NCBI GenBank assembly: GCA_964344315.1
Contig: CAYFMU010000006.1
Coordinates: forward strand, 7,025-71,024
Source: an uncultured bacterium
GTDB taxonomy: Bacteria > Fidelibacterota > Marinisomatia > SCGC-AAA003-L08 > D37C17
Length of the DNA: 64,000 nucleotides
Direction of reading: 5' to 3'
Both the position numbers and the translations under genes were made by a program. Below, piece by piece: positions 33,118-63,466 of the stretch; the stretch's first letter is position 1; each line of letters begins with the position of its first letter. The notes beneath the pieces are model-generated. The model was not told the origin of the DNA. It saw only the letters and a list, made by a program, of their open reading frames with translations, and ran no database searches.

Positions 33118-34463
33118 TGAAAAATTGGAAGCCCTCATCTTGGCAAAATTTTAATGCTAAACAGCAACCCCAATGGAAAGATACCTCATTGTATGAAAAA
33201 GTAATAAATGAGATTTCTCAATATCCACCTTTGGTATTTGCTGGAGAGGTTCGCACATTAAAAAAACATTTAGCCGATGCAGCACAAGGAAACGGTTTTC
33301 TTATTCAAGGCGGAGATTGTGCTGAAACCTTTCATGATTTTAAAGCCAATTCTATACGTGATAAATTAAAAATTCTCCTTCAAATGTCAGTTGTACTTAC
33401 TTATGGTGCGTCTTATAATGTAGTAAAAGTAGGACGAATTGCAGGACAATTTGCAAAACCCCGTAGCTCAAATGTTGAAAATAGAAACAATATAGAATTA
33501 CCATCTTATAGAGGTGACGCTGTTAATGATATTGAATTTAATGATGTTTCTCGAACAGCAAATCCAAAACGTCTATTAAAAGCCTACAACCAATCTGCGG
33601 CCACGCTTAATTTGTTGCGTGCATTTACTTTGGGGGGATTTGCAGATTTAAATAAAGTTCATCTATGGAATCAAGAATTTATTTCCAATTCAGCATCTGG
33701 CGAAAAGTATGAAAAAATTGCATCAAGTATTGATGATGCCCTTAAATTTATGAATGCTGTGGGCATAACATCTGATAGCCATTCCCATTTACGAATGGCC
33801 GATTTATATACATCTCATGAAGCATTATTATTAGGTTATGAACAAGCCCTTACTCGGGAAGATTCCATAACAGGAGATTGGTATAATTGCTCTGCGCACT
33901 TTTTATGGATTGGCGATAGAACTCGGCAAATAGATGGTTCTCATGTAGAATTTCTTTCTGGTGTAAAGAACCCCATTGGTATAAAGGCTGGACCATCATT
34001 AACTCCAAAGGAATTGGTAAAATTATCTCAAAAGTTAAATCCAGAAAATGAATGGGGACGTCTTTCAGTAATTACACGTATGGGTGCGGAAAGTATAAGT
34101 GACTATTTACCTCCATTAATTGAAGAATCAAAAAAAGAGGGTCTTAATCTTTTATGGGTATGTGATCCTATGCATGGGAATACATACAAAACAGAGCTTG
34201 GTTTTAAAACACGTCATTTTGATACCATTCTGAAAGAAATACAACAATTTTTTGCAATCCACAATGAACTGGGTACGGTTCCAGGCGGTGTTCATTTTGA
34301 ACTCACTGGAGATAATGTCACAGAATGTTTGGGTGGGGCGCAAGATATCAGTGACTATGATTTAAAGGAACGCTATGAAACGGCTTGCGACCCACGACTA
34401 AACAACGAACAAAGTTTAGAACTAGCATTTTTAATTACAGAATTACTTCGAAATAATAAGTGA
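33117..34463 (+). CDS. 3-deoxy-7-phosphoheptulonate synthase, class II
   Basis: N-terminal W.PSSWQ...AKQQPQW and the length are typical of class II (plant-like) DAHP synthases. ATG 33117 (TAATG overlap with bolA) is preferred; 33099 is also possible. Confidence 0.88.
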   Translation: MKNWKPSSWQNFNAKQQPQWKDTSLYEKVINEISQYPPLVFAGEVRTLKKHLADAAQGNGFLIQGGDCAETFHDFKANSIRDKLKILLQMSVVLTYGASYNVVKVGRIAGQFAKPRSSNVENRNNIELPSYRGDAVNDIEFNDVSRTANPKRLLKAYNQSAATLNLLRAFTLGGFADLNKVHLWNQEFISNSASGEKYEKIASSIDDALKFMNAVGITSDSHSHLRMADLYTSHEALLLGYEQALTREDSITGDWYNCSAHFLWIGDRTRQIDGSHVEFLSGVKNPIGIKAGPSLTPKELVKLSQKLNPENEWGRLSVITRMGAESISDYLPPLIEESKKEGLNLLWVCDPMHGNTYKTELGFKTRHFDTILKEIQQFFAIHNELGTVPGGVHFELTGDNVTECLGGAQDISDYDLKERYETACDPRLNNEQSLELAFLITELLRNNK

Positions 34464-36568
34464 AGCGCATTTCTGTAATATTGGGGAGTATTTTATTTAT
34501 GTCATGCACGGCAAATTCCGAGTTACAATTCAATTATCCTTCAACAAAGCGTGTTCCTCAAGTAGATGACTTTTTTGGTACTAAAGTGGAAGATCCATAT
34601 CGTTGGTTAGAAGATTTAGATTCTGAAGAAGTATTAAGTTGGGCACATTCGTAGCAAGATTTCACACAAGAATATCTAGATAAAATTCCATTTACATCAA
34701 AAATCGAAAAAAAACTTAAAGCAAAATGGAATTATGAACGCATGAGTATGCCATTTCGAAAAGGTGAAAGATATTTTTATTTTCGAAATTCAGGGCTTCA
34801 AAATCATTCTATTTTATACTATAAAAATGGACTTGAAGGAGAGGAAAAATTACTACTAGACCCCAATACCTTTAGTGAAGATGGTTCAAAATCACTTTCT
34901 ATGACAAGTGTGAGTAAGGATGGTAGATATATTGCTTATGGCATATCCCAAAGTGGAAGTGATTGGGATGAATATTTTGTATATGATATTGAAGAGGGTA
35001 AAAAATTAAATGACCATTTGAAATGGATTAAATTTTCTGATGCATCATGGCTACCAGATGGAAGTAGCTTTTATTATAGCCGTTATCCTCGGCCATCAGG
35101 TGATGAATATGAAGACCAAAATCAGCATAATAAACTCTATCTCCATAAATTGGGAGATGATCAGCATCAAGATAAATTGGTTTATGAAGATGTAAACAAC
35201 CCTGGTTATGGATTTTTTACATTTATAACAGAAGACGAGCAGTATCAAATTTTAGGGATTTGGTCAGGGGCAAACGATCATAATCTATTGTATTATCGCC
35301 ACTTTAATAGTGATGAAGAATTTATACCCATCATTAAAGAATGGCTCAGCGATTTTAGTTATAAATTCAATTTTGGTGATGAATTTTATATCTCGACAAA
35401 GTACAATGCACCCAATGGAAAATTGATGAAGTTTAATCTTTCGGACCCATCATTGAATCATTGGGAAACGGTAATTCCCGAAAACAAGAATGTATTACAA
35501 GGACTAAGAATTGTTAACAAAAATCAATGGATTGCCACGTATAATGAAGATTTAGCTGATATTGTATACGTATATAATCTCCAAGGAAATTTTGTTAAAG
35601 AGATTGAACTTCCAGATTTAGGCTCTGTTGGATTTTCAGGTAGATGGGATGACGCCACTATATTCTATTCATTTTCCTCATACTTATACCCAAACACAAT
35701 ATATACATTAGATTTAAACTCTTTTGAATCAACTCCATATTGGACAACTAATAAAATTCAAAATACAGATGAATATATTTTAAAACGCAAATTTTATTCA
35801 AGTAAAGACGGGACAAAAATTCCCATGTTCATTTTGCATAAAAAGGATATGAATCTAAATGGAGAAAATCCAACTTATTTATATGGGTATGGTGGTTTTA
35901 ATGGAAGTGTTTCTCCCTATTTTTCTGTATCACGCTTAACATGGTTAGAATTAGGTGGTGTATTGGCATTTCCGGCTTTACGCGGCGGCGGCGAATACGG
36001 TGAAGAGTGGCATCAGGCAGGAATGTTGCATAAAAAACAAAATGTATTCGATGACTTTATTTACGCCGCAGAATATTTGATTGACAATCAATATACATCG
36101 CCAGAAAAACTAGCCATTGGTGGCGGTAGTAATGGTGGACTTCTTGTGTCAGCATGTATGCTTCAACGCCCAGATTTATTTACTGCCGTAGATTGTTCGG
36201 TTCCGGTTACAGACATGCTTCGTTTTCATAAATTTACCATTGGCTGGGCATGGGTGCCTGAATATGGTAGCTCTGAAAATGAAGAGCAATTTAATTTTTT
36301 GATTGAATACTCACCCGTCCATAATGTTAAGAAGAGTGAGTACCCCTCCATTATGATTTCAACAGGAGATCATGATGATAGAGTGGTACCATCACATTCA
36401 TATAAATTAGCGGCAGAATTACAGCATAATAATAAAAGTGATAGTCCTATGTTACTTCGTGTACATGGTAAAGCTGGGCATGGTGCGGGGAAACCCACAA
36501 ATCAAGTAATTAAAGAAATTGCAGAAACGTGGGCATTTTTACTATTTGAAATGGGTGTTTCTATTTAG
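34460..36568 (+). pseudogene. Prolyl oligopeptidase (S9A) interrupted by a single in-frame TAG
   Basis: ORFs 34460..34654 and 34742..36568 are in the same frame, and the 87 nt between them are open. The only stop is TAG at 34652..34654. Lipobox FMSC. The S9 blocks GGSNGGLL, DHDDRVVP and KAGHGAGKP are intact. Confidence 0.85.
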
Positions 36569-51651: not shown

Positions 51652-52689
51652 CTATTCTGAGACAATTGTTTCTAACCTGTCAATTACAAAATTCACATCG
51701 GTCTCTGATATTCCCCTATGGGTAACCAATCTAAATCTATTGGGCTGTACTTCAAAAAATTGAATATTACTTTCGGCCATTTTTTTAACAAGTTTTTGCC
51801 CAGTTAAAACTTTAGGGTTTACTCCAAAATATATAATATTTGATTTTACTTTTTCAGCATCAACAAACAAACCATCAATCTTGTCTATACCATCTGCTAA
51901 TATCTTGGCATGGTTATGGTCAGTATTTAATTGTAAAACCATTTCATTTATAGACACAAGACCAGCAGCGGCAACAATTCCTCCCTGTCGCATTCCCCCT
52001 CCTAATGCTTTTCTAATTCTTCGGGCTTCAAATATAAATTTTTCAGAACCACATAAAACTGAACCTACAGGAGATGCTAACCCTTTAGAGAGGCAAAAGG
52101 TAATAGAATCTACATCTTTTACCAGTTGATGTACATCCATATTTAAGGCTACAGAGGCATTAAAAATTCGTGCACCATCAACATGAAGTTTTACATTATT
52201 TTCTTTGGCAATGGCAGACACTTCACTGAAATACTCTGGAGGTATGGGAGAACCATTACACATATTGTGGGTATTCTCTAATGAAATGAGAGAGGTTCGT
52301 GGAAAGTGTACATTTTCTTTTCGGAATGCGTTTTTAATGAGGTTTATATCTATAGTGCCGTCTTCGTTGTTGGAGAGTTGATGCGAATGAATCCCCCCGA
52401 ATGCTGAAATTCCACCAGCCTCATAAATAAATGTATGGGATTTATCTCCTAATATTGCCTCGGTACCGCGGGGGCAATGGACCAAAAATGAAATGAGGTT
52501 GCCCATTGTTCCACTGGGAACAAACAATGCCGCTTCTTTTTGTAATAGTGCTGCCGATTGTTTTTCCAATTTTATTATTGTTGGATCTTCTTGAAGGACA
52601 TCATCACCAACAGTTGCAGTATGCATGGCGTTTCGCATGGATTGAGTTGGTTGTGTTACCGTATCGCTTCGTAAATCTATAGCTTTCAT
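51652..52689 (-). CDS. ltaE: Low-specificity L-threonine aldolase
   Basis: N-terminal DLRSDTVTQPT..MR.AM....VGDDV and SGTMGNL, 345 aa. Confidence 0.85.
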   Translation of the reverse strand: MKAIDLRSDTVTQPTQSMRNAMHTATVGDDVLQEDPTIIKLEKQSAALLQKEAALFVPSGTMGNLISFLVHCPRGTEAILGDKSHTFIYEAGGISAFGGIHSHQLSNNEDGTIDINLIKNAFRKENVHFPRTSLISLENTHNMCNGSPIPPEYFSEVSAIAKENNVKLHVDGARIFNASVALNMDVHQLVKDVDSITFCLSKGLASPVGSVLCGSEKFIFEARRIRKALGGGMRQGGIVAAAGLVSINEMVLQLNTDHNHAKILADGIDKIDGLFVDAEKVKSNIIYFGVNPKVLTGQKLVKKMAESNIQFFEVQPNRFRLVTHRGISETDVNFVIDRLETIVSE

Positions 52690-52738
52690 AATTTTCTCGT
52701 TTTGGATTATGGAAAATTTAATGATTCATATAGAAAAC

Positions 52739-52767
52739 AAAAAACCTCTTCGTTGAAGAGGTTTTTT
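52739..52767 (-). terminator. Rho-independent terminator after the M43 protease gene
   Basis: Stem AAAACCTCTTC / GAAGAGGTTTT with a short loop, flanked by A and T runs. Confidence 0.75.
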
Positions 52768-52823
52768 GCTCTTTAAACTTAAATGTTTAAAGATGGTGTA
52801 GGAGGAAGAATGCAATATAACAA

Positions 52824-55331
52824 TTATGTATTCAATATAGAATTTACTATATCAACTAAATCGATTACGTTAATATTTCCATCTGAGTTGAAGTCTGCAA
52901 GACCCAATACGGAGTCATCTAAATCATTATTCCCAACAATGTAGCCTACAATTTGAACAATATCTAAAATATCCACAGTAAAGTCATCATTTACATCACC
53001 AGGAAGTGTAGATGCCGTAGCTTCTAACAAACTGGGGCGGTAAGTTTCAATTGCCCAATGAATTCTACTTTTTTGCCCTTCAGTAAAGAAGTACATACAA
53101 TCATCATCTACATAGTCCATAAAATTACCAATATCTTCAGGAACACCACATGAACTTGCCCAGCTTGGGCAACCTAAATTATCATATGCTTGTGGGGGAG
53201 TATCATCCACTTCATCACCAGGCGCTGCACATCCATTTTCAAATGTATGGTAGAGCCCCAGATAGTGTCCAGCTTCATGAAGACCCGTATCCCCTTCATT
53301 TACACCCCAAGCACCGCCTGGATGTGTGAAATTAGCACAATAAAGACCATGATTATGACTATCTTCTGGGAATGACCATGGGTATACGCCTAAACCATAA
53401 ATTCCGCCACCAGTAGTCCAATAATAGTTTAGCGTATGTGCGGGATCAATACTGGTGTTACTGGCCATATCAAGATACATATCTTCGCATTGCCATTGTC
53501 CTGTATCCCAATCTTTATTTCCTGCCGCATAATACCAACCTGAATTATTAAGTCTATCAATGGACTGAATACTAAAAGAATAACCAAATTCATTATATAC
53601 GGAATTTAGATGGTCAGTTTGCAATTGCATAATATTATCATGAAGATCACCATCAATAAAATCTCCTTCAGGAGCTGTAAAATCGTTGAATCTATATTGA
53701 CCGTACCATCCAATATTTGCCAATACATTGCCTTGGCTATCTGTTACATTTCCCGTAACACCACCGTCACCATAGTCATCCCATAAGAATAGTGCATACT
53801 CACCGGGAGTTAATACCCCACCCAAAGAATAATTATGATACGCATAGTCAAATCCAAAACCTGGATAAAGTAAAAAGGTATTATTTTGATAATCCCAAAT
53901 ATCCCATACAGCTTCCCAATAGTAGCTATCTACTTGTACATTCATAAGACTAGAAATATCTTTGGTACGCATACGTAATTTTAATAATGCAGAGAGAATC
54001 ACTTCGGTATTGCTTAAATTGGGATGTTCTTGTTGAAGCGTATTAAAAAAATCATTATGGACATTGGTGAAACGGGTTTCAAACTCTTTCCAATTAATAT
54101 TTGTACCATCCTCATTAAGATCATCTAAATGAATAGATGGAGAATGGGAATCCACACTGTCATCATCGTTTGGATGTTTTAATTTTCCTAATTCGTTATT
54201 TAGATTAATGGCTTTTAATAAATATGCAGCAAGTTCTTTCTCTTTTGATTCTAACTCATCATGTAGTTCTTTATCTTCTGATTTTAGATCTATAACATTT
54301 AAGCGAGTGGTTAATTCTTCAATAGCTTGTTCTTTTTTTGAGAGTTTCTCTAAATATTGTTCATTTAATACTTCTTCATTGAGCTTCAATGATTTTTTTA
54401 GATTTTCTAACGCCTGTTTATAATTGGATTCTTTTTCATAATAATTAGATAGAAATTTGTATGCATCTCGTTCTTTATTTTTCATTTTATGTTCGCGGGT
54501 CAAATCAATGCATTGTTTTATCCAATCTTTACCTAATTTATAATTATTTTGTTCAAAATTAAGCCTTCCCATCCCCATTAGTAAATCGGCTCTCACTTTA
54601 GGGTCAAATTCAATTTCTGTATTTTTAAGTCCTTTTTGCAGAAAAGATTTAGCTTCATCTAAATTTCCATTTACCATAGAAATTGATGCTAAAGAATTTA
54701 ATGCATAGGCAGAAATTCGAATTTCTTCAGGAATACCTTTTACATCTTTTAATGCTTTTTTTAAGTATTGAGATGCAAGGGAATATTCCTCTAACTCTTG
54801 GTAACACACCCCAATGTTTAGATGTGCTCGCCCTACCTCCATTTTATTTTGCTTCATCTCTTTAATAGAAATGGATTTTTTGAAGTAAGCAATAGCCTGT
54901 TCAAAGTTTTTATTTATATTATAAACCGCTCCTAAATTTGAGTAAAGAGAAGAGAGGATTCGTTTATTTTTTAGTTTTTCAGATAAGGTAAGGGCATCAG
55001 TATAAAACTGGATTGCATTTGAATTATCCCCTTCTTCGTAAGCCACCAATCCTTGCTGAAGTTTAATTAAGGCATAATTATCAGGAGAAGAATGGATATC
55101 AAACTTTTGTATTGTTTTTTGGACAGCACTCTTTGCATTTGAGATTTGCTGCTGGATGTAATAGCCCCAAAATATGAGAATATGAGCTTTAAAAATATGA
55201 TGTTCTTCAATAAATCCTGTTGCATGGTCAATAATTTTATTGAGTTTTTTAATGGTATTCTCTGGATTGGCATAAACCTTTGATTCAGCATCATTAATTT
55301 GAGTTATGTAATGTTTTTTACTTTTTGCCAT
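52824..55331 (-). CDS. Chimeric ORF: TPR plus coiled-coil plus truncated LuxR-type HTH (aa 1-465) fused to a DxYGDG beta-domain, M43 (pappalysin/ulilysin-type) metalloprotease and dockerin-like tail
   Basis: No signal peptide. TPR units span aa 90-320, and the HTH remnant is LSNTEVILSALLKLRMRTKDISSLMNV. The junction is near 53936. The zinc motif HEAGHYLGLYH (53247..53279) is followed by GDEVDDTP. The dockerin-like 60 aa lie at 52827..53006. Confidence 0.7.
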   Translation of the reverse strand: MAKSKKHYITQINDAESKVYANPENTIKKLNKIIDHATGFIEEHHIFKAHILIFWGYYIQQQISNAKSAVQKTIQKFDIHSSPDNYALIKLQQGLVAYEEGDNSNAIQFYTDALTLSEKLKNKRILSSLYSNLGAVYNINKNFEQAIAYFKKSISIKEMKQNKMEVGRAHLNIGVCYQELEEYSLASQYLKKALKDVKGIPEEIRISAYALNSLASISMVNGNLDEAKSFLQKGLKNTEIEFDPKVRADLLMGMGRLNFEQNNYKLGKDWIKQCIDLTREHKMKNKERDAYKFLSNYYEKESNYKQALENLKKSLKLNEEVLNEQYLEKLSKKEQAIEELTTRLNVIDLKSEDKELHDELESKEKELAAYLLKAINLNNELGKLKHPNDDDSVDSHSPSIHLDDLNEDGTNINWKEFETRFTNVHNDFFNTLQQEHPNLSNTEVILSALLKLRMRTKDISSLMNVQVDSYYWEAVWDIWDYQNNTFLLYPGFGFDYAYHNYSLGGVLTPGEYALFLWDDYGDGGVTGNVTDSQGNVLANIGWYGQYRFNDFTAPEGDFIDGDLHDNIMQLQTDHLNSVYNEFGYSFSIQSIDRLNNSGWYYAAGNKDWDTGQWQCEDMYLDMASNTSIDPAHTLNYYWTTGGGIYGLGVYPWSFPEDSHNHGLYCANFTHPGGAWGVNEGDTGLHEAGHYLGLYHTFENGCAAPGDEVDDTPPQAYDNLGCPSWASSCGVPEDIGNFMDYVDDDCMYFFTEGQKSRIHWAIETYRPSLLEATASTLPGDVNDDFTVDILDIVQIVGYIVGNNDLDDSVLGLADFNSDGNINVIDLVDIVNSILNT

Positions 55332-55383
55332 TGTTCCATTTTAATAAAAAATTCAACTCAATGTAAAGTATCTTTAACTTGAA

Positions 55384-56961
55384 ATGAATAATCCCCTAAA
55401 TTTCAATATGAATTCATTCAATCTAATAAATGGAAAATTCATTTGCCCTGTAAATAGCAGCTTAGAAATTTCCTCGCTAACCATTAAAAATGGAAAAATT
55501 TCATCATTAAATAATATAGAAAATTCACTTCCCTCTATAAATTTAAAGGGAAATACACTCATCCCTGGGTTTACCGATTCTCATTTTCATCTTAAAAATT
55601 TAGGAAAACGATTAGAGCAACTTCAATTAAAAGGCATTGATTCACCCCATACCATCTCAGAATTAGTCGTTGAAAAATCTCAAATACTGCCACCAAATAC
55701 ATGGATTACAGGCTTTGGTTGGGATCAAACATTATGGGAAGATGAGGCATTTCCACCATCTCATTTATTAAATAAAATTGATACTCACCCAGTAATGCTT
55801 ACTAGAATTGATGGGCATTCAATTTGGGTAAATGAATATGCATTAAAATTAGGCGGTTATGATATAACAAAACTCCATTCTCCTGAAGGCGGGAGCATCA
55901 TCAACGATTGTGTTTTATTGGACAATGCCATGAATCCAATTTGGGATGCACAGCCAGATGATAAGTTCGAAGATGTAAAACGATGGATAAAAACGGCAGT
56001 GAAAGAAGTGAGAAGTAGAGGTATTACCAATGTGCATGATGCGTGGCAAGATGGAGATACTATACGTGCGATTAAAGCACTAGAAAGCCATGGGGCGCTT
56101 CCCATAAGATGTTATGGAATGTTAGCCAGTTCTGATGAATCCCTGTTATCCTCGTATTTTAAAAATGGGCATTATCAATCTGAATTATATACAATTCGTT
56201 CGGTTAAAGCATTCATTGATGGAGCATTAGGGAGTAGAGGAGCTGCATTACTAGAGCCTTATACAGACGACCATTGTAATTGTGGGCTTATTTTGATTTC
56301 TCAAGAAGAGTTTGAACAATTGACACAGCAGTGTAAAGATGCAAATTTTCAACTTTGTACTCATGCTATTGGTGATAGGGGTAACCAATATGTATTAAAC
56401 GCTTACGCCAGTACGCTCAACAATGCCCACAACCATCGATGGCGAATTGAGCATGCACAGATGGTAACAGATGAAGATATAACTACATTCGCAACTAATC
56501 ATATTCTTCCATCAATGCAGCCCAGCCACTGCACATCGGATATGCGTTGGATGAAAAACAGAATCGGTGATAATAGACTCCATCGAATTTCAAGATGGCA
56601 ATCTTTTGTGGATGTAGGCTTACCTGTTCCAGGGGGGTCTGATTGTCCTATTGAAGATGGTTTACCTATGTACGAATATTATGCAGCCGTGACGCGTCAA
56701 AATCATGATGGTTATCCAAAGAGTGGATGGCAACCTCAAGAAAAATTAGATAGAGTTAATGCCCTAAAAATGTTTACTACATGGGCGGCACATGGTGAAT
56801 TTGCAGAACATCGACGAGGAGCATTGAAAGTTGGTTTTGATGCAGACTTTTCCATCTTATCAGAAAATATTTTGGAATGTTCTGATGCCAACATTTTAAA
56901 AACCAAAATAATTGATTCATCTGTAAATGGAATATTTTCTAATTCAGAATTTCAAGTGTAA
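55384..56961 (+). CDS. Amidohydrolase-family metal-dependent hydrolase (YtcJ-like)
   Basis: 525 aa with the GFTDSHFHL metal-binding motif, HAIGD and a C-terminal GSDCP block. Confidence 0.8.
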   Translation: MNNPLNFNMNSFNLINGKFICPVNSSLEISSLTIKNGKISSLNNIENSLPSINLKGNTLIPGFTDSHFHLKNLGKRLEQLQLKGIDSPHTISELVVEKSQILPPNTWITGFGWDQTLWEDEAFPPSHLLNKIDTHPVMLTRIDGHSIWVNEYALKLGGYDITKLHSPEGGSIINDCVLLDNAMNPIWDAQPDDKFEDVKRWIKTAVKEVRSRGITNVHDAWQDGDTIRAIKALESHGALPIRCYGMLASSDESLLSSYFKNGHYQSELYTIRSVKAFIDGALGSRGAALLEPYTDDHCNCGLILISQEEFEQLTQQCKDANFQLCTHAIGDRGNQYVLNAYASTLNNAHNHRWRIEHAQMVTDEDITTFATNHILPSMQPSHCTSDMRWMKNRIGDNRLHRISRWQSFVDVGLPVPGGSDCPIEDGLPMYEYYAAVTRQNHDGYPKSGWQPQEKLDRVNALKMFTTWAAHGEFAEHRRGALKVGFDADFSILSENILECSDANILKTKIIDSSVNGIFSNSEFQV

Positions 56962-62489: not shown

Positions 62490-63119
62490 ATGGCAAAATC
62501 CCAACCATTTAATGTGGTAGATGACATTGGTCTTTCCCATACCCTAGCGTCCACATTTTACACTGAGGATGAGTATTTTGAAATTTCAAAAGAGAAGATT
62601 TTTAGCTCATCTTGGCAACTCATCACTCATAAAAATCAGTTACAAGGTTTAACTCAATATCCATTTACCTTTTTAAAGGGGTATATAGATGAACCGTTGG
62701 TGCTTACTCAAGAAAATGAAATAACCCATTGCTATTCAAATGTATGTACTCACCGTGCCCATTTAGTCTGTGTAGATGCCTGTGATAAATCACTGCTACG
62801 ATGCAGATATCATGGTAGAACTTTTGAGCTTGATGGCAAGATGAAAGCCATGCCAGGTTTTGATGAGGTGAAGAATTTCCCCACTGAAAATGATAATTTA
62901 ACCCACATCCCGTCATTAATTTGGAAAGATTTTATCTTTGTTTCATTAAATCCAAAAATGGATATTCAACCAATTTTTGATGATATTGAACATCGGTTAC
63001 AGGGCTATGAATTTGATAAATTAGAATTAGATGAGAGATTGTCCAAATCCTATGAAATTGATGCTCATTGGGCACTATACTGCGAAAACTATTTGGAGGA
63101 GTTCCACATTCCATTTTAA
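62490..63119 (+). pseudogene. Rieske [2Fe-2S] non-heme iron oxygenase alpha subunit, 3'-truncated
   Basis: The Rieske motif CTHRAH...CRYHGRTF is present. The ORF stops at EEFHIPF-TAA, inside the mononuclear-iron H-x4-H motif. About 209 aa remain of what I would expect to be a considerably longer (roughly 350 aa or more) protein, and the catalytic domain is absent downstream. Confidence 0.65.
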
Positions 63120-63466
63120 CACCATCTATTGCATTTTCACAAAATCGTACAGATAATATTGACTATTACTACGAGGGATGGGCTGCTGCCGAAAGAGATT
63201 ATGGAGGTGGTGGAGCAATTGTAGGTGGCCTAGGTAGTGGTTTTCTATTAGGTTTAATCGGATGGGCTGTTGGTCTTGCGATAGTTGCAAATCAAAATGT
63301 TGAAGTTCCGTATCATTATCTATTAGAGTTAAGTAATTCTGATAGAATGAGGTTTGAACAAGGATATAAAGATGCTGTTAAAAAGAAACGTAATGGTAAT
63401 TTTAATGTGGGTGCAGGATTGGGTACTCTATCAGCGGTTATCTTTATGTTGAATGCAAGCAGTTAG
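63068..63466 (+). CDS. Small glycine-zipper membrane protein, apparently lacking its own 5' end
   Basis: The open frame has no ATG in its first 95 codons; the ORF-track start is TTG inside the Rieske gene. It contains GGGGAIVGGLGSGFLLGLIGWAVGLAIV and a second hydrophobic C-terminal segment. Confidence 0.35.
   Translation: MGTILRKLFGGVPHSILTPSIAFSQNRTDNIDYYYEGWAAAERDYGGGGAIVGGLGSGFLLGLIGWAVGLAIVANQNVEVPYHYLLELSNSDRMRFEQGYKDAVKKKRNGNFNVGAGLGTLSAVIFMLNASS

Follow-up and report, generated by a model that had tools for sequence, protein, structure and literature searches.

An in-frame fusion of a truncated TPR regulator and a truncated M43B metalloprotease in an uncultured marine-type bacterium: a probable relic of gene decay

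How a single open reading frame (ORF) comes to hold part of a cytoplasmic regulator followed by part of a secreted-type protease, whether such a gene exists in the organism at all and whether its product could do the work of either parent are the questions raised by one locus in the genome of an uncultured bacterium (GTDB lineage Bacteria; Fidelibacterota; Marinisomatia; SCGC-AAA003-L08; D37C17). The window analysed here is a stretch of 64,000 nucleotides from contig 6 of a 2.12-Mb, 48-contig genome (G000; completeness score 100 %, GC 35 %). By the names that its nearest homologues carry, the bacterium is probably of the Marinimicrobia/SAR406 type. The ORF occupies positions 52824..55331 of the minus strand of this window and is open over 835 codons, with its stop codon at 52824..52826. 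Amino acids (aa) 1–465 carry TPR repeats plus a coiled coil and break off half-way through a LuxR/GerE helix-turn-helix (HTH), and aa 466–835 form an M43B protease of the ulilysin/mirolysin type with a dockerin tail (Table 1). An initial annotation, made from the sequence alone, had described just such a joining of a TPR/HTH-regulator remnant to an M43 protease with dockerin, and both Pfam profiles and homologue comparison bear it out. The fused ORF is a real chimeric gene in the DNA of this organism, and we consider it probable that illegitimate recombination, with deletion as its likeliest form, fused two genes in frame and left a recent, still-open relic of gene decay.

The regulator half was searched against 41 relatives, 41 other genomes of the same family, a collection of 5.8 billion proteins and 1.84 billion representative proteins. 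A single close relative emerged across these searches, the 488-aa protein P0042 of genome G018 (G018:C61), with 52 % identity over aa 3–466. The sequence of P0042 reads ...SNTEIILAALLKLRLRSKDIASLMNV and, after ...SLMNV, goes on with LPSTIEIYRYRLRKKCNLNSQDNLIAFINTI, into the recognition helix; its tail matches GerE profile positions 3–55 of 57 (23.9 bits, cut-off 23.5). The fused protein tracks P0042 up to ...DISSLMNV (V465, nt 53937) and then diverges; therefore about half of the HTH is kept and the recognition helix is gone, in agreement with the initial annotation, which had the HTH ending before its recognition helix near nt 53936. In the N-terminal half several TPR units were found by profile, whilst the ORF itself gave no Pfam match to the GerE/LuxR HTH and holds no complete four-helix GerE domain with a recognition helix. 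The likeness to regulators with a MalT-like TPR region and a C-terminal LuxR/GerE domain, of which P0042 is the nearest, consists of the TPR array, the coiled coil and the first HTH helices, whereas in the fused ORF protease sequence replaces the recognition and C-terminal helices, leaving GerE undetectable. A paralogue with a complete HTH (491 aa) is present on contig 12 (C12) of the same genome.

This likeness extends to the gene neighbourhood. On all six of the contigs listed, out of 23 read and from several metagenome projects, P0042 is divergent to an Amidohydro_3 gene, and the window has the same divergent pairing, with an amidohydrolase at 55384..56961 (+). Divergence between G018 and the window is similar for the regulator (52 % identity) and the amidohydrolase (57–58 %), which fits vertical co-inheritance. 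As an observation in its own right, the divergent pairing of an Amidohydro_3 gene with a TPR/LuxR regulator occurs in G018 and on the metagenome contigs examined (L014, L036–L041), and the amidohydrolase is a likely target of the regulator; in the genome studied here and in its genus-mates the amidohydrolase is retained, in all likelihood, without a functional regulator.

Relatives of the protease half are many (51–61 % identity), one of them named Candidatus Marinimicrobia, and all align from aa 460 of the ORF onward, beginning at their own residue 81–92. Intact parents of this kind include the metagenomic protein P0122 (448 aa, 51 % identity, 98 % coverage of the half) as well as P0003, P0012 and P0007 (56–61 %). 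Separate searches of the two halves, as proposed in the initial annotation, thereby returned full-length versions of each: P0042 on the one side and, on the other, P0122, P0012, P0003 and further proteins, all of them with a signal peptide. In the 80–92 residues by which the intact proteases are longer at the N-terminus lie the signal peptide, a pro-segment with the Cys switch and the strand IPINYHVIYV; the block IPINYHxIYxxGDS is nearly invariant among homologues and, in the alignment, is missing from the ORF. Among 114 homologues, the pro-segment Cys and the beta1-strand His are each kept in 90 % or more. P0122 has the domain order of the C-terminal half of the ORF, beta insert and dockerin included, plus the N-terminal part, with a signal peptide (MRFLLALIFVFSFCSG), a pro-segment Cys and a strand (IEIPINYHKIYV), none of which the ORF has. 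Most other close homologues end in a type IX secretion system (T9SS) sorting domain, not in a dockerin.

Mirolysin and ulilysin are secreted zymogens in which a Cys-Gly motif in the pro-segment blocks the zinc; their sheet is ordered beta2/3, beta1, beta4, beta8, beta7, making beta1 an internal strand, the second of five, and the domain is stabilised by two internal disulfides together with a structural site for two calcium ions (PMC6949598). The profile of the 114 homologues matches pro-ulilysin (E = 2.7e-50), with profile 'rrCg' aligned to RRCG of the ulilysin pro-segment and 'tipvafHvi' to KIPVVVHVV, found right where the mature chain begins (residue 4 of 3lum_A corresponds to profile position 74). 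For P0122, an AlphaFold2 (AF2) model computed from the 114-sequence alignment (mean predicted local distance difference test, pLDDT, 81.1) has a continuous strand at 58–80, in which beta1 runs into the insert, and a beta insert of ~100 residues (strands 72–169, pLDDT ~80–95) before the backing helix at 181–198. The fold of this model matches mirolysin and ulilysin in Foldseek (E ~1e-12, template modelling (TM) score 0.62 on the target); the mapping of beta1 rests on the profile-to-PDB sequence alignment and not on the Foldseek matches. An earlier model of P0122 from 19 sequences (pLDDT 54.6) was too poor and was discarded. The beta-domain with the DDYGDGG motif that the initial annotation had recognized is therefore present, although not as a separate N-terminal domain: these ~100 aa are inserted into the M43 catalytic domain itself, where they part beta1 from the backing helix.

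Within the C-terminal half, Peptidase_M43 (PF05572) scores 43.7 bits against a gathering cut-off of 23 over aa 678–758, and the zinc motif (HExxHxxGxxH, at the very position first assigned to it), the Met-turn and all four disulfide Cys are kept, in invariant or nearly invariant columns. Where M43B proteases have a signal peptide and a Cys-Gly pro-segment, regulator sequence stands instead, and the catalytic domain is incomplete, lacking strand beta1. Compared with ulilysin (PDB 2CKI, 3LUM, 8CDB) and mirolysin (6R7U-W), the ORF shares the zinc site, the Met-turn, the calcium-loop region with GDEVDDTP and the four Cys of the disulfides, and the fold of its intact homologue matches theirs (TMt 0.62); it differs in the absence of signal peptide, Cys-switch pro-segment and strand beta1, and in the presence of a dockerin tail and, past beta1, of a beta insert of ~100 aa, all of this placed behind a cytoplasmic TPR protein. 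Read from these alignments, the fusion took away the predicted signal peptide, the putative latency pro-segment and strand beta1 from the protease half. Nor does an internal start appear to restore export: as in the initial annotation, none with a signal peptide was found in the ORF list or among the in-frame Met residues past the junction, behind which we saw, judging by eye, no signal-peptide-like stretch, and downstream of the junction there is no other minus-strand ORF of at least 60 aa.

The proteases with this insert form an M43B clade (P0002–P0034 and P0122) in which ~100 residues bearing a DD[YF]GxGG motif lie between beta1 and the backing helix, and whose members carry T9SS or dockerin tails. 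The insert is missing from the M43 protein of genome G001 and from ulilysin. The definition of this clade is a side product of the present analysis.

The two parents meet on a short shared sequence. In HMMER searches of the 1.84 billion representatives, regulator homology ends at aa 466 and protease homology starts at aa 460, with ...LMNV... in the overlap, and the join sits on the shared ATGAATGT, coding M-N-V. At the junction the window reads CTT ATG AAT GTA CAA GTA GAT and the regulator orthologue of G018 CTA ATG AAT GTT CTG, whilst the protease homologues read TAT ATG AAT GTG ACG (L026), TAT ATG AAT CTC CAA (L027) and ATT AAT GTA CAA GTG GAC (UBA1611, L042). This codon comparison therefore places the crossover within ~8 bases (ATG AAT GT) carried by both parent families. 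Breakpoints on short direct repeats are what illegitimate recombination, or slippage, usually leaves behind. The breakpoint cuts secondary-structure elements of both parents, not a linker, and the predicted fused peptide spans the junction as ...SSLMNVQVDSYYWE.... With both parents intact elsewhere and the breakpoint inside domains of both, the ORF has the marks of a chimera. A frameshift instead of a deletion was considered and rejected, as no other frame at the locus codes for a regulator tail or a protease head.

The junction recurs across assemblies. The exact 835-aa protein or the identical junction was found on at least eight contigs, three of which were read; these are separate assemblies of runs ERR2281801, ERR2281804 and ERR2281806 from one study, and are 99.98–99.99 % identical to the window over 8.6–14.5 kb, with one or two differing single-nucleotide polymorphisms (SNPs) each, one of them synonymous within the gene. 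GC content at third codon positions (GC3) is 0.223 and 0.247 in the two halves, against a genome mean of 0.24 (sd 0.039). The higher GC of the protease half had suggested that it was of foreign origin and recently acquired; this is not supported, since codon positions 1 and 2 account for the difference and GC3 is native. Elsewhere in the genome neither a regulator tail nor a protease head was found as an orphan, and on both sides the gene is flanked by sequence collinear with the sister genome G002.

The other two members of the genus that were searched (G001 and G002) have the amidohydrolase gene directly adjoining a threonine-aldolase-like gene (window 51652..52689). In G002, ~41 unrelated bases stand in place of window 52690..55354, so that the segment missing there (~2.7 kb) corresponds to the fused gene together with its promoter side and the terminator hairpin, and no insert-bearing M43 gene is found elsewhere in that genome. 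As the regulator is also present in only one of the 41 other family genomes, we take the locus to be dispensable and repeatedly lost. Furthermore, no other protein matching both halves exists among the 1.84 billion representatives, and an architecture unique at this scale argues for an accident rather than an evolved arrangement.

The anatomy of the ORF, both parent architectures, the exact breakpoint with its microhomology, the recurrence across assemblies, the unique architecture and the absence in genus-mates are observed; the former adjacency of the parent genes, deletion as the event and the inactivity of the product are inferred. A single illegitimate recombination at ATGAATGT would have joined regulator codon ~465 to protease codon ~80–110 with the frame kept, in its simplest form by deletion between two co-oriented neighbouring genes. 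The regulator would thereby have lost the recognition helix and last helix of its HTH, and the protease its signal peptide, cysteine-switch pro-segment and catalytic strand beta1, whilst the chimera would retain the promoter side of the former and the terminator of the latter, its product being made from the start of the regulator. Such a product could not bind DNA as its parent did, having no recognition helix, and could not be exported; its metzincin sheet would be without an internal strand, and it would reside in a reducing, low-calcium cytoplasm although its family needs two disulfides and two structural calcium ions. To judge from sequence, it would fail at both parental jobs. As parts of both parents are missing, the gene is read as a recent relic and not as a working new protein. 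Fusion in frame by recombination or deletion had also been ranked first in the initial annotation, and the full-length parents and the breakpoint on shared sequence now support that ranking; a new architecture had been placed last, to be revived by fused orthologues in other genomes, and none came to light among the representatives searched.

In-frame fusion scars made by deletion are a well-known kind of object. The present ORF resembles them in that unrelated genes are joined at a short shared sequence with both truncated within folded domains, in its unique architecture and in the dispensability of the locus in close relatives. It departs from typical cases in lying in a small free-living marine-type genome, not in a prophage or island, and in that the deleted interval, for want of a close unfused relative, cannot be reconstructed.

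Several observations weigh against a recent deletion relic. The adjacency of the two parents was not seen in any relative: downstream of the intact regulators stands a convergent LysE gene and no protease, and no regulator lies upstream of the M43 homologues examined. The 2.5-kb frame is fully open at 35 % GC, with all catalytic residues, the Cys and the Met-turn intact, which fits a recent event but equally selection. A test of constraint was ambiguous: at positions that do not vary among 18 homologues, the ORF has 16 changes found in it alone, compared with no more than four for any other sequence, but we do not accept this as proof of relaxed selection, because the ORF sequence is also the deepest branch (58 % mean identity). 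Finally, the independence of the assemblies is limited, since all junction contigs come from one study.

The first of these points bears on the origin of the protease fragment. It may not have come from a neighbouring gene at all, the same chimera having arisen when a rearrangement, or foreign DNA integrated by illegitimate recombination, replaced the 3' end of the regulator. No relative shows a regulator and an M43 gene side by side, the fused gene is the sole M43 in its own genome, and the closest insert-bearing M43 genes lie in other Marinimicrobia and in metagenomes, with none in the 41 other family genomes searched. We nevertheless regard this origin as unlikely: in its GC3 the protease half is like the rest of the genome; its tail is a dockerin, the module standard in this lineage itself, in contrast to the T9SS C-terminal domain on most of the closest homologues; and G002 has neither of the two parts, which would suit a single ancestral block between amidohydrolase and aldolase.

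Somewhat less probable again is that selection has kept the chimera as a functional cytoplasmic protein, for instance with the TPR part as a scaffold by which a metzincin-like or dockerin module is tethered or controlled, or as a TPR protein whose action needs no DNA binding. The open frame of 835 codons would be expected of such a protein, as would the intact zinc motif, Met-turn and four Cys; a promoter-like site and a terminator hairpin of its own accompany the gene, and it is the sole allele seen for the species in the protein collections searched. Ranged against function are the missing signal peptide, the loss of both the recognition helix and the internal sheet strand beta1, the reliance of the family on disulfides and structural calcium (PMC6949598), the uniqueness of the architecture among the representatives, the genus-mates that live without the whole locus, and a breakpoint at a chance microhomology within secondary-structure elements rather than in a domain linker. 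In its more specific form, a working cytoplasmic TPR sensor or scaffold that captured a metzincin-like module and dockerin without the latency pro-segment, the idea seems very doubtful; if true, it would represent a new intracellular use of the pappalysin-type domain, arising from one microhomology deletion.

The weakest account is an assembly chimera, in which genes separate in reality were merged by an assembler and no cell holds the fused ORF: the 48-contig draft is probably a metagenome bin, and a single study supplies every junction contig, but this alternative, raised in the initial annotation, is made unlikely, indeed highly improbable, by a junction found on eight contigs (the three read being separate assemblies with SNPs of their own), by native GC3 in both halves, by the lack of orphan leftovers, by flanks syntenic with G002 on both sides, and by a join at which the relatives compared have only eight bases in common. 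A de Bruijn misjoin needs a k-mer overlap far above eight bases. The contig names bear the prefix k127.

For annotation, the consequence of a deletion-made fusion is direct: an automatic pipeline would label it as TPR protein or M43 peptidase and tally it as a secreted protease, whereas most likely, as far as its sequence tells, it works neither as a regulator nor as a protease. For genome reduction, it would offer a snapshot, dated by its context, of gene shedding in small marine genomes, where one short-homology event fused and probably disabled two genes at a locus that sister species have by now shed altogether. Existing knowledge of gene decay is left unchanged; the case is of value chiefly for getting the annotation right and for showing gene loss cleanly in a small marine-type genome.

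Table 1. Position and supporting evidence of the features of the fused ORF and its flanks (window coordinates)
Feature	Position	Strand	Basis or remark
Promoter-like site TTTACA-18-TAAAAT, 10/12 consensus	55338..55367	-	Consensus scan; just 5' of start codon
Regulator-derived part, aa 1–465	53937..55331	-	52 % identity over aa 3–466 with intact 488-aa regulator P0042 / G018:C61; Pfam TPR
TPR repeat region, aa ~40–330	54342..55214	-	Pfam TPR_12 1.4e-22, TPR_1 4.9e-19, TPR_2 6.5e-18, TPR_8, TPR_MalT
HTH remnant LSNTEVILSALLKLRMRTKDISSLMNV, aa 439–465	53937..54017	-	Without recognition helix and last helix; orthologue goes on LPSTIEIYRYRLRKK
Junction microhomology ATG AAT GTA (M463-N464-V465)	53937..53945	-	Codon comparison; HMMER overlap of parent types at aa 460–466
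M43 beta insert domain, aa 466 to ~555; first strand half replaced	53667..53936	-	Homologue alignment; AF2 model of intact P0122
DDYGDGG motif	53760..53780	-	Sequence
Remaining M43B catalytic domain, aa ~556–770	53022..53666	-	Pfam PF05572; ulilysin and mirolysin matched by sequence and fold
Zinc motif HEAGHYLGLYH	53247..53279	-	Sequence
Met-turn NFMDY	53112..53126	-	Sequence
Dockerin type I tail, two Ca-loop repeats, aa 777–831	52839..53003	-	Pfam Dockerin_1 (PF00404), 26.5 bits vs cut-off 22.9
Terminator-like hairpin and U-run	52734..52772	-	~50 nt past stop codon; RNA fold

Of the flanking signals, the promoter-like site counts as weak evidence, with 23 such sites in the region against 14.6 by chance. 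The terminator-like hairpin folds at -23 kcal/mol (z-score -6.7), equalled by none of 200 shuffles, and was not among the hits of the consensus scan. It bears a flanking A-run as well as the U-run and, lying between the fused gene and the aldolase gene, could terminate transcription in both directions.

The dockerin tail consists of two repeats, DVNDDFTVDILD and DFNSDGNINVIDL (52857..53000, read from the sequence), with predicted Ca-binding loops. The genome has ~98 Dockerin_1 matches in 2.1 Mb, and most of the 40 relatives searched (G001–G040) gave at least 40 matches to the protease half, nearly all in the dockerin tail; this module seems to be a standard C-terminal element of exoproteins in the lineage. 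The closest M43 homologues in other Marinimicrobia bear T9SS sorting domains rather than a dockerin. A literature search for dockerins in Marinimicrobia found nothing.

Two further loci in the window look broken and may represent decaying genes, in keeping with the reading of the fused gene as a relic. At 34460..36568 (+), a prolyl oligopeptidase gene (Peptidase_S9_N and Peptidase_S9) is interrupted by a single in-frame TAG at 34652..34654, which falls in the conserved N-terminal domain, the part past the stop starting at profile position 42; it could be a nonsense pseudogene or a case of read-through. At 62490..63466 (+), a Rieske oxygenase ORF of 209 aa has the Rieske [2Fe-2S] domain only, ends ...EEFHIPF* without a catalytic domain and overlaps a Gly-rich, membrane-like ORF of 132 aa with no Pfam match, and looks like another truncation junction.

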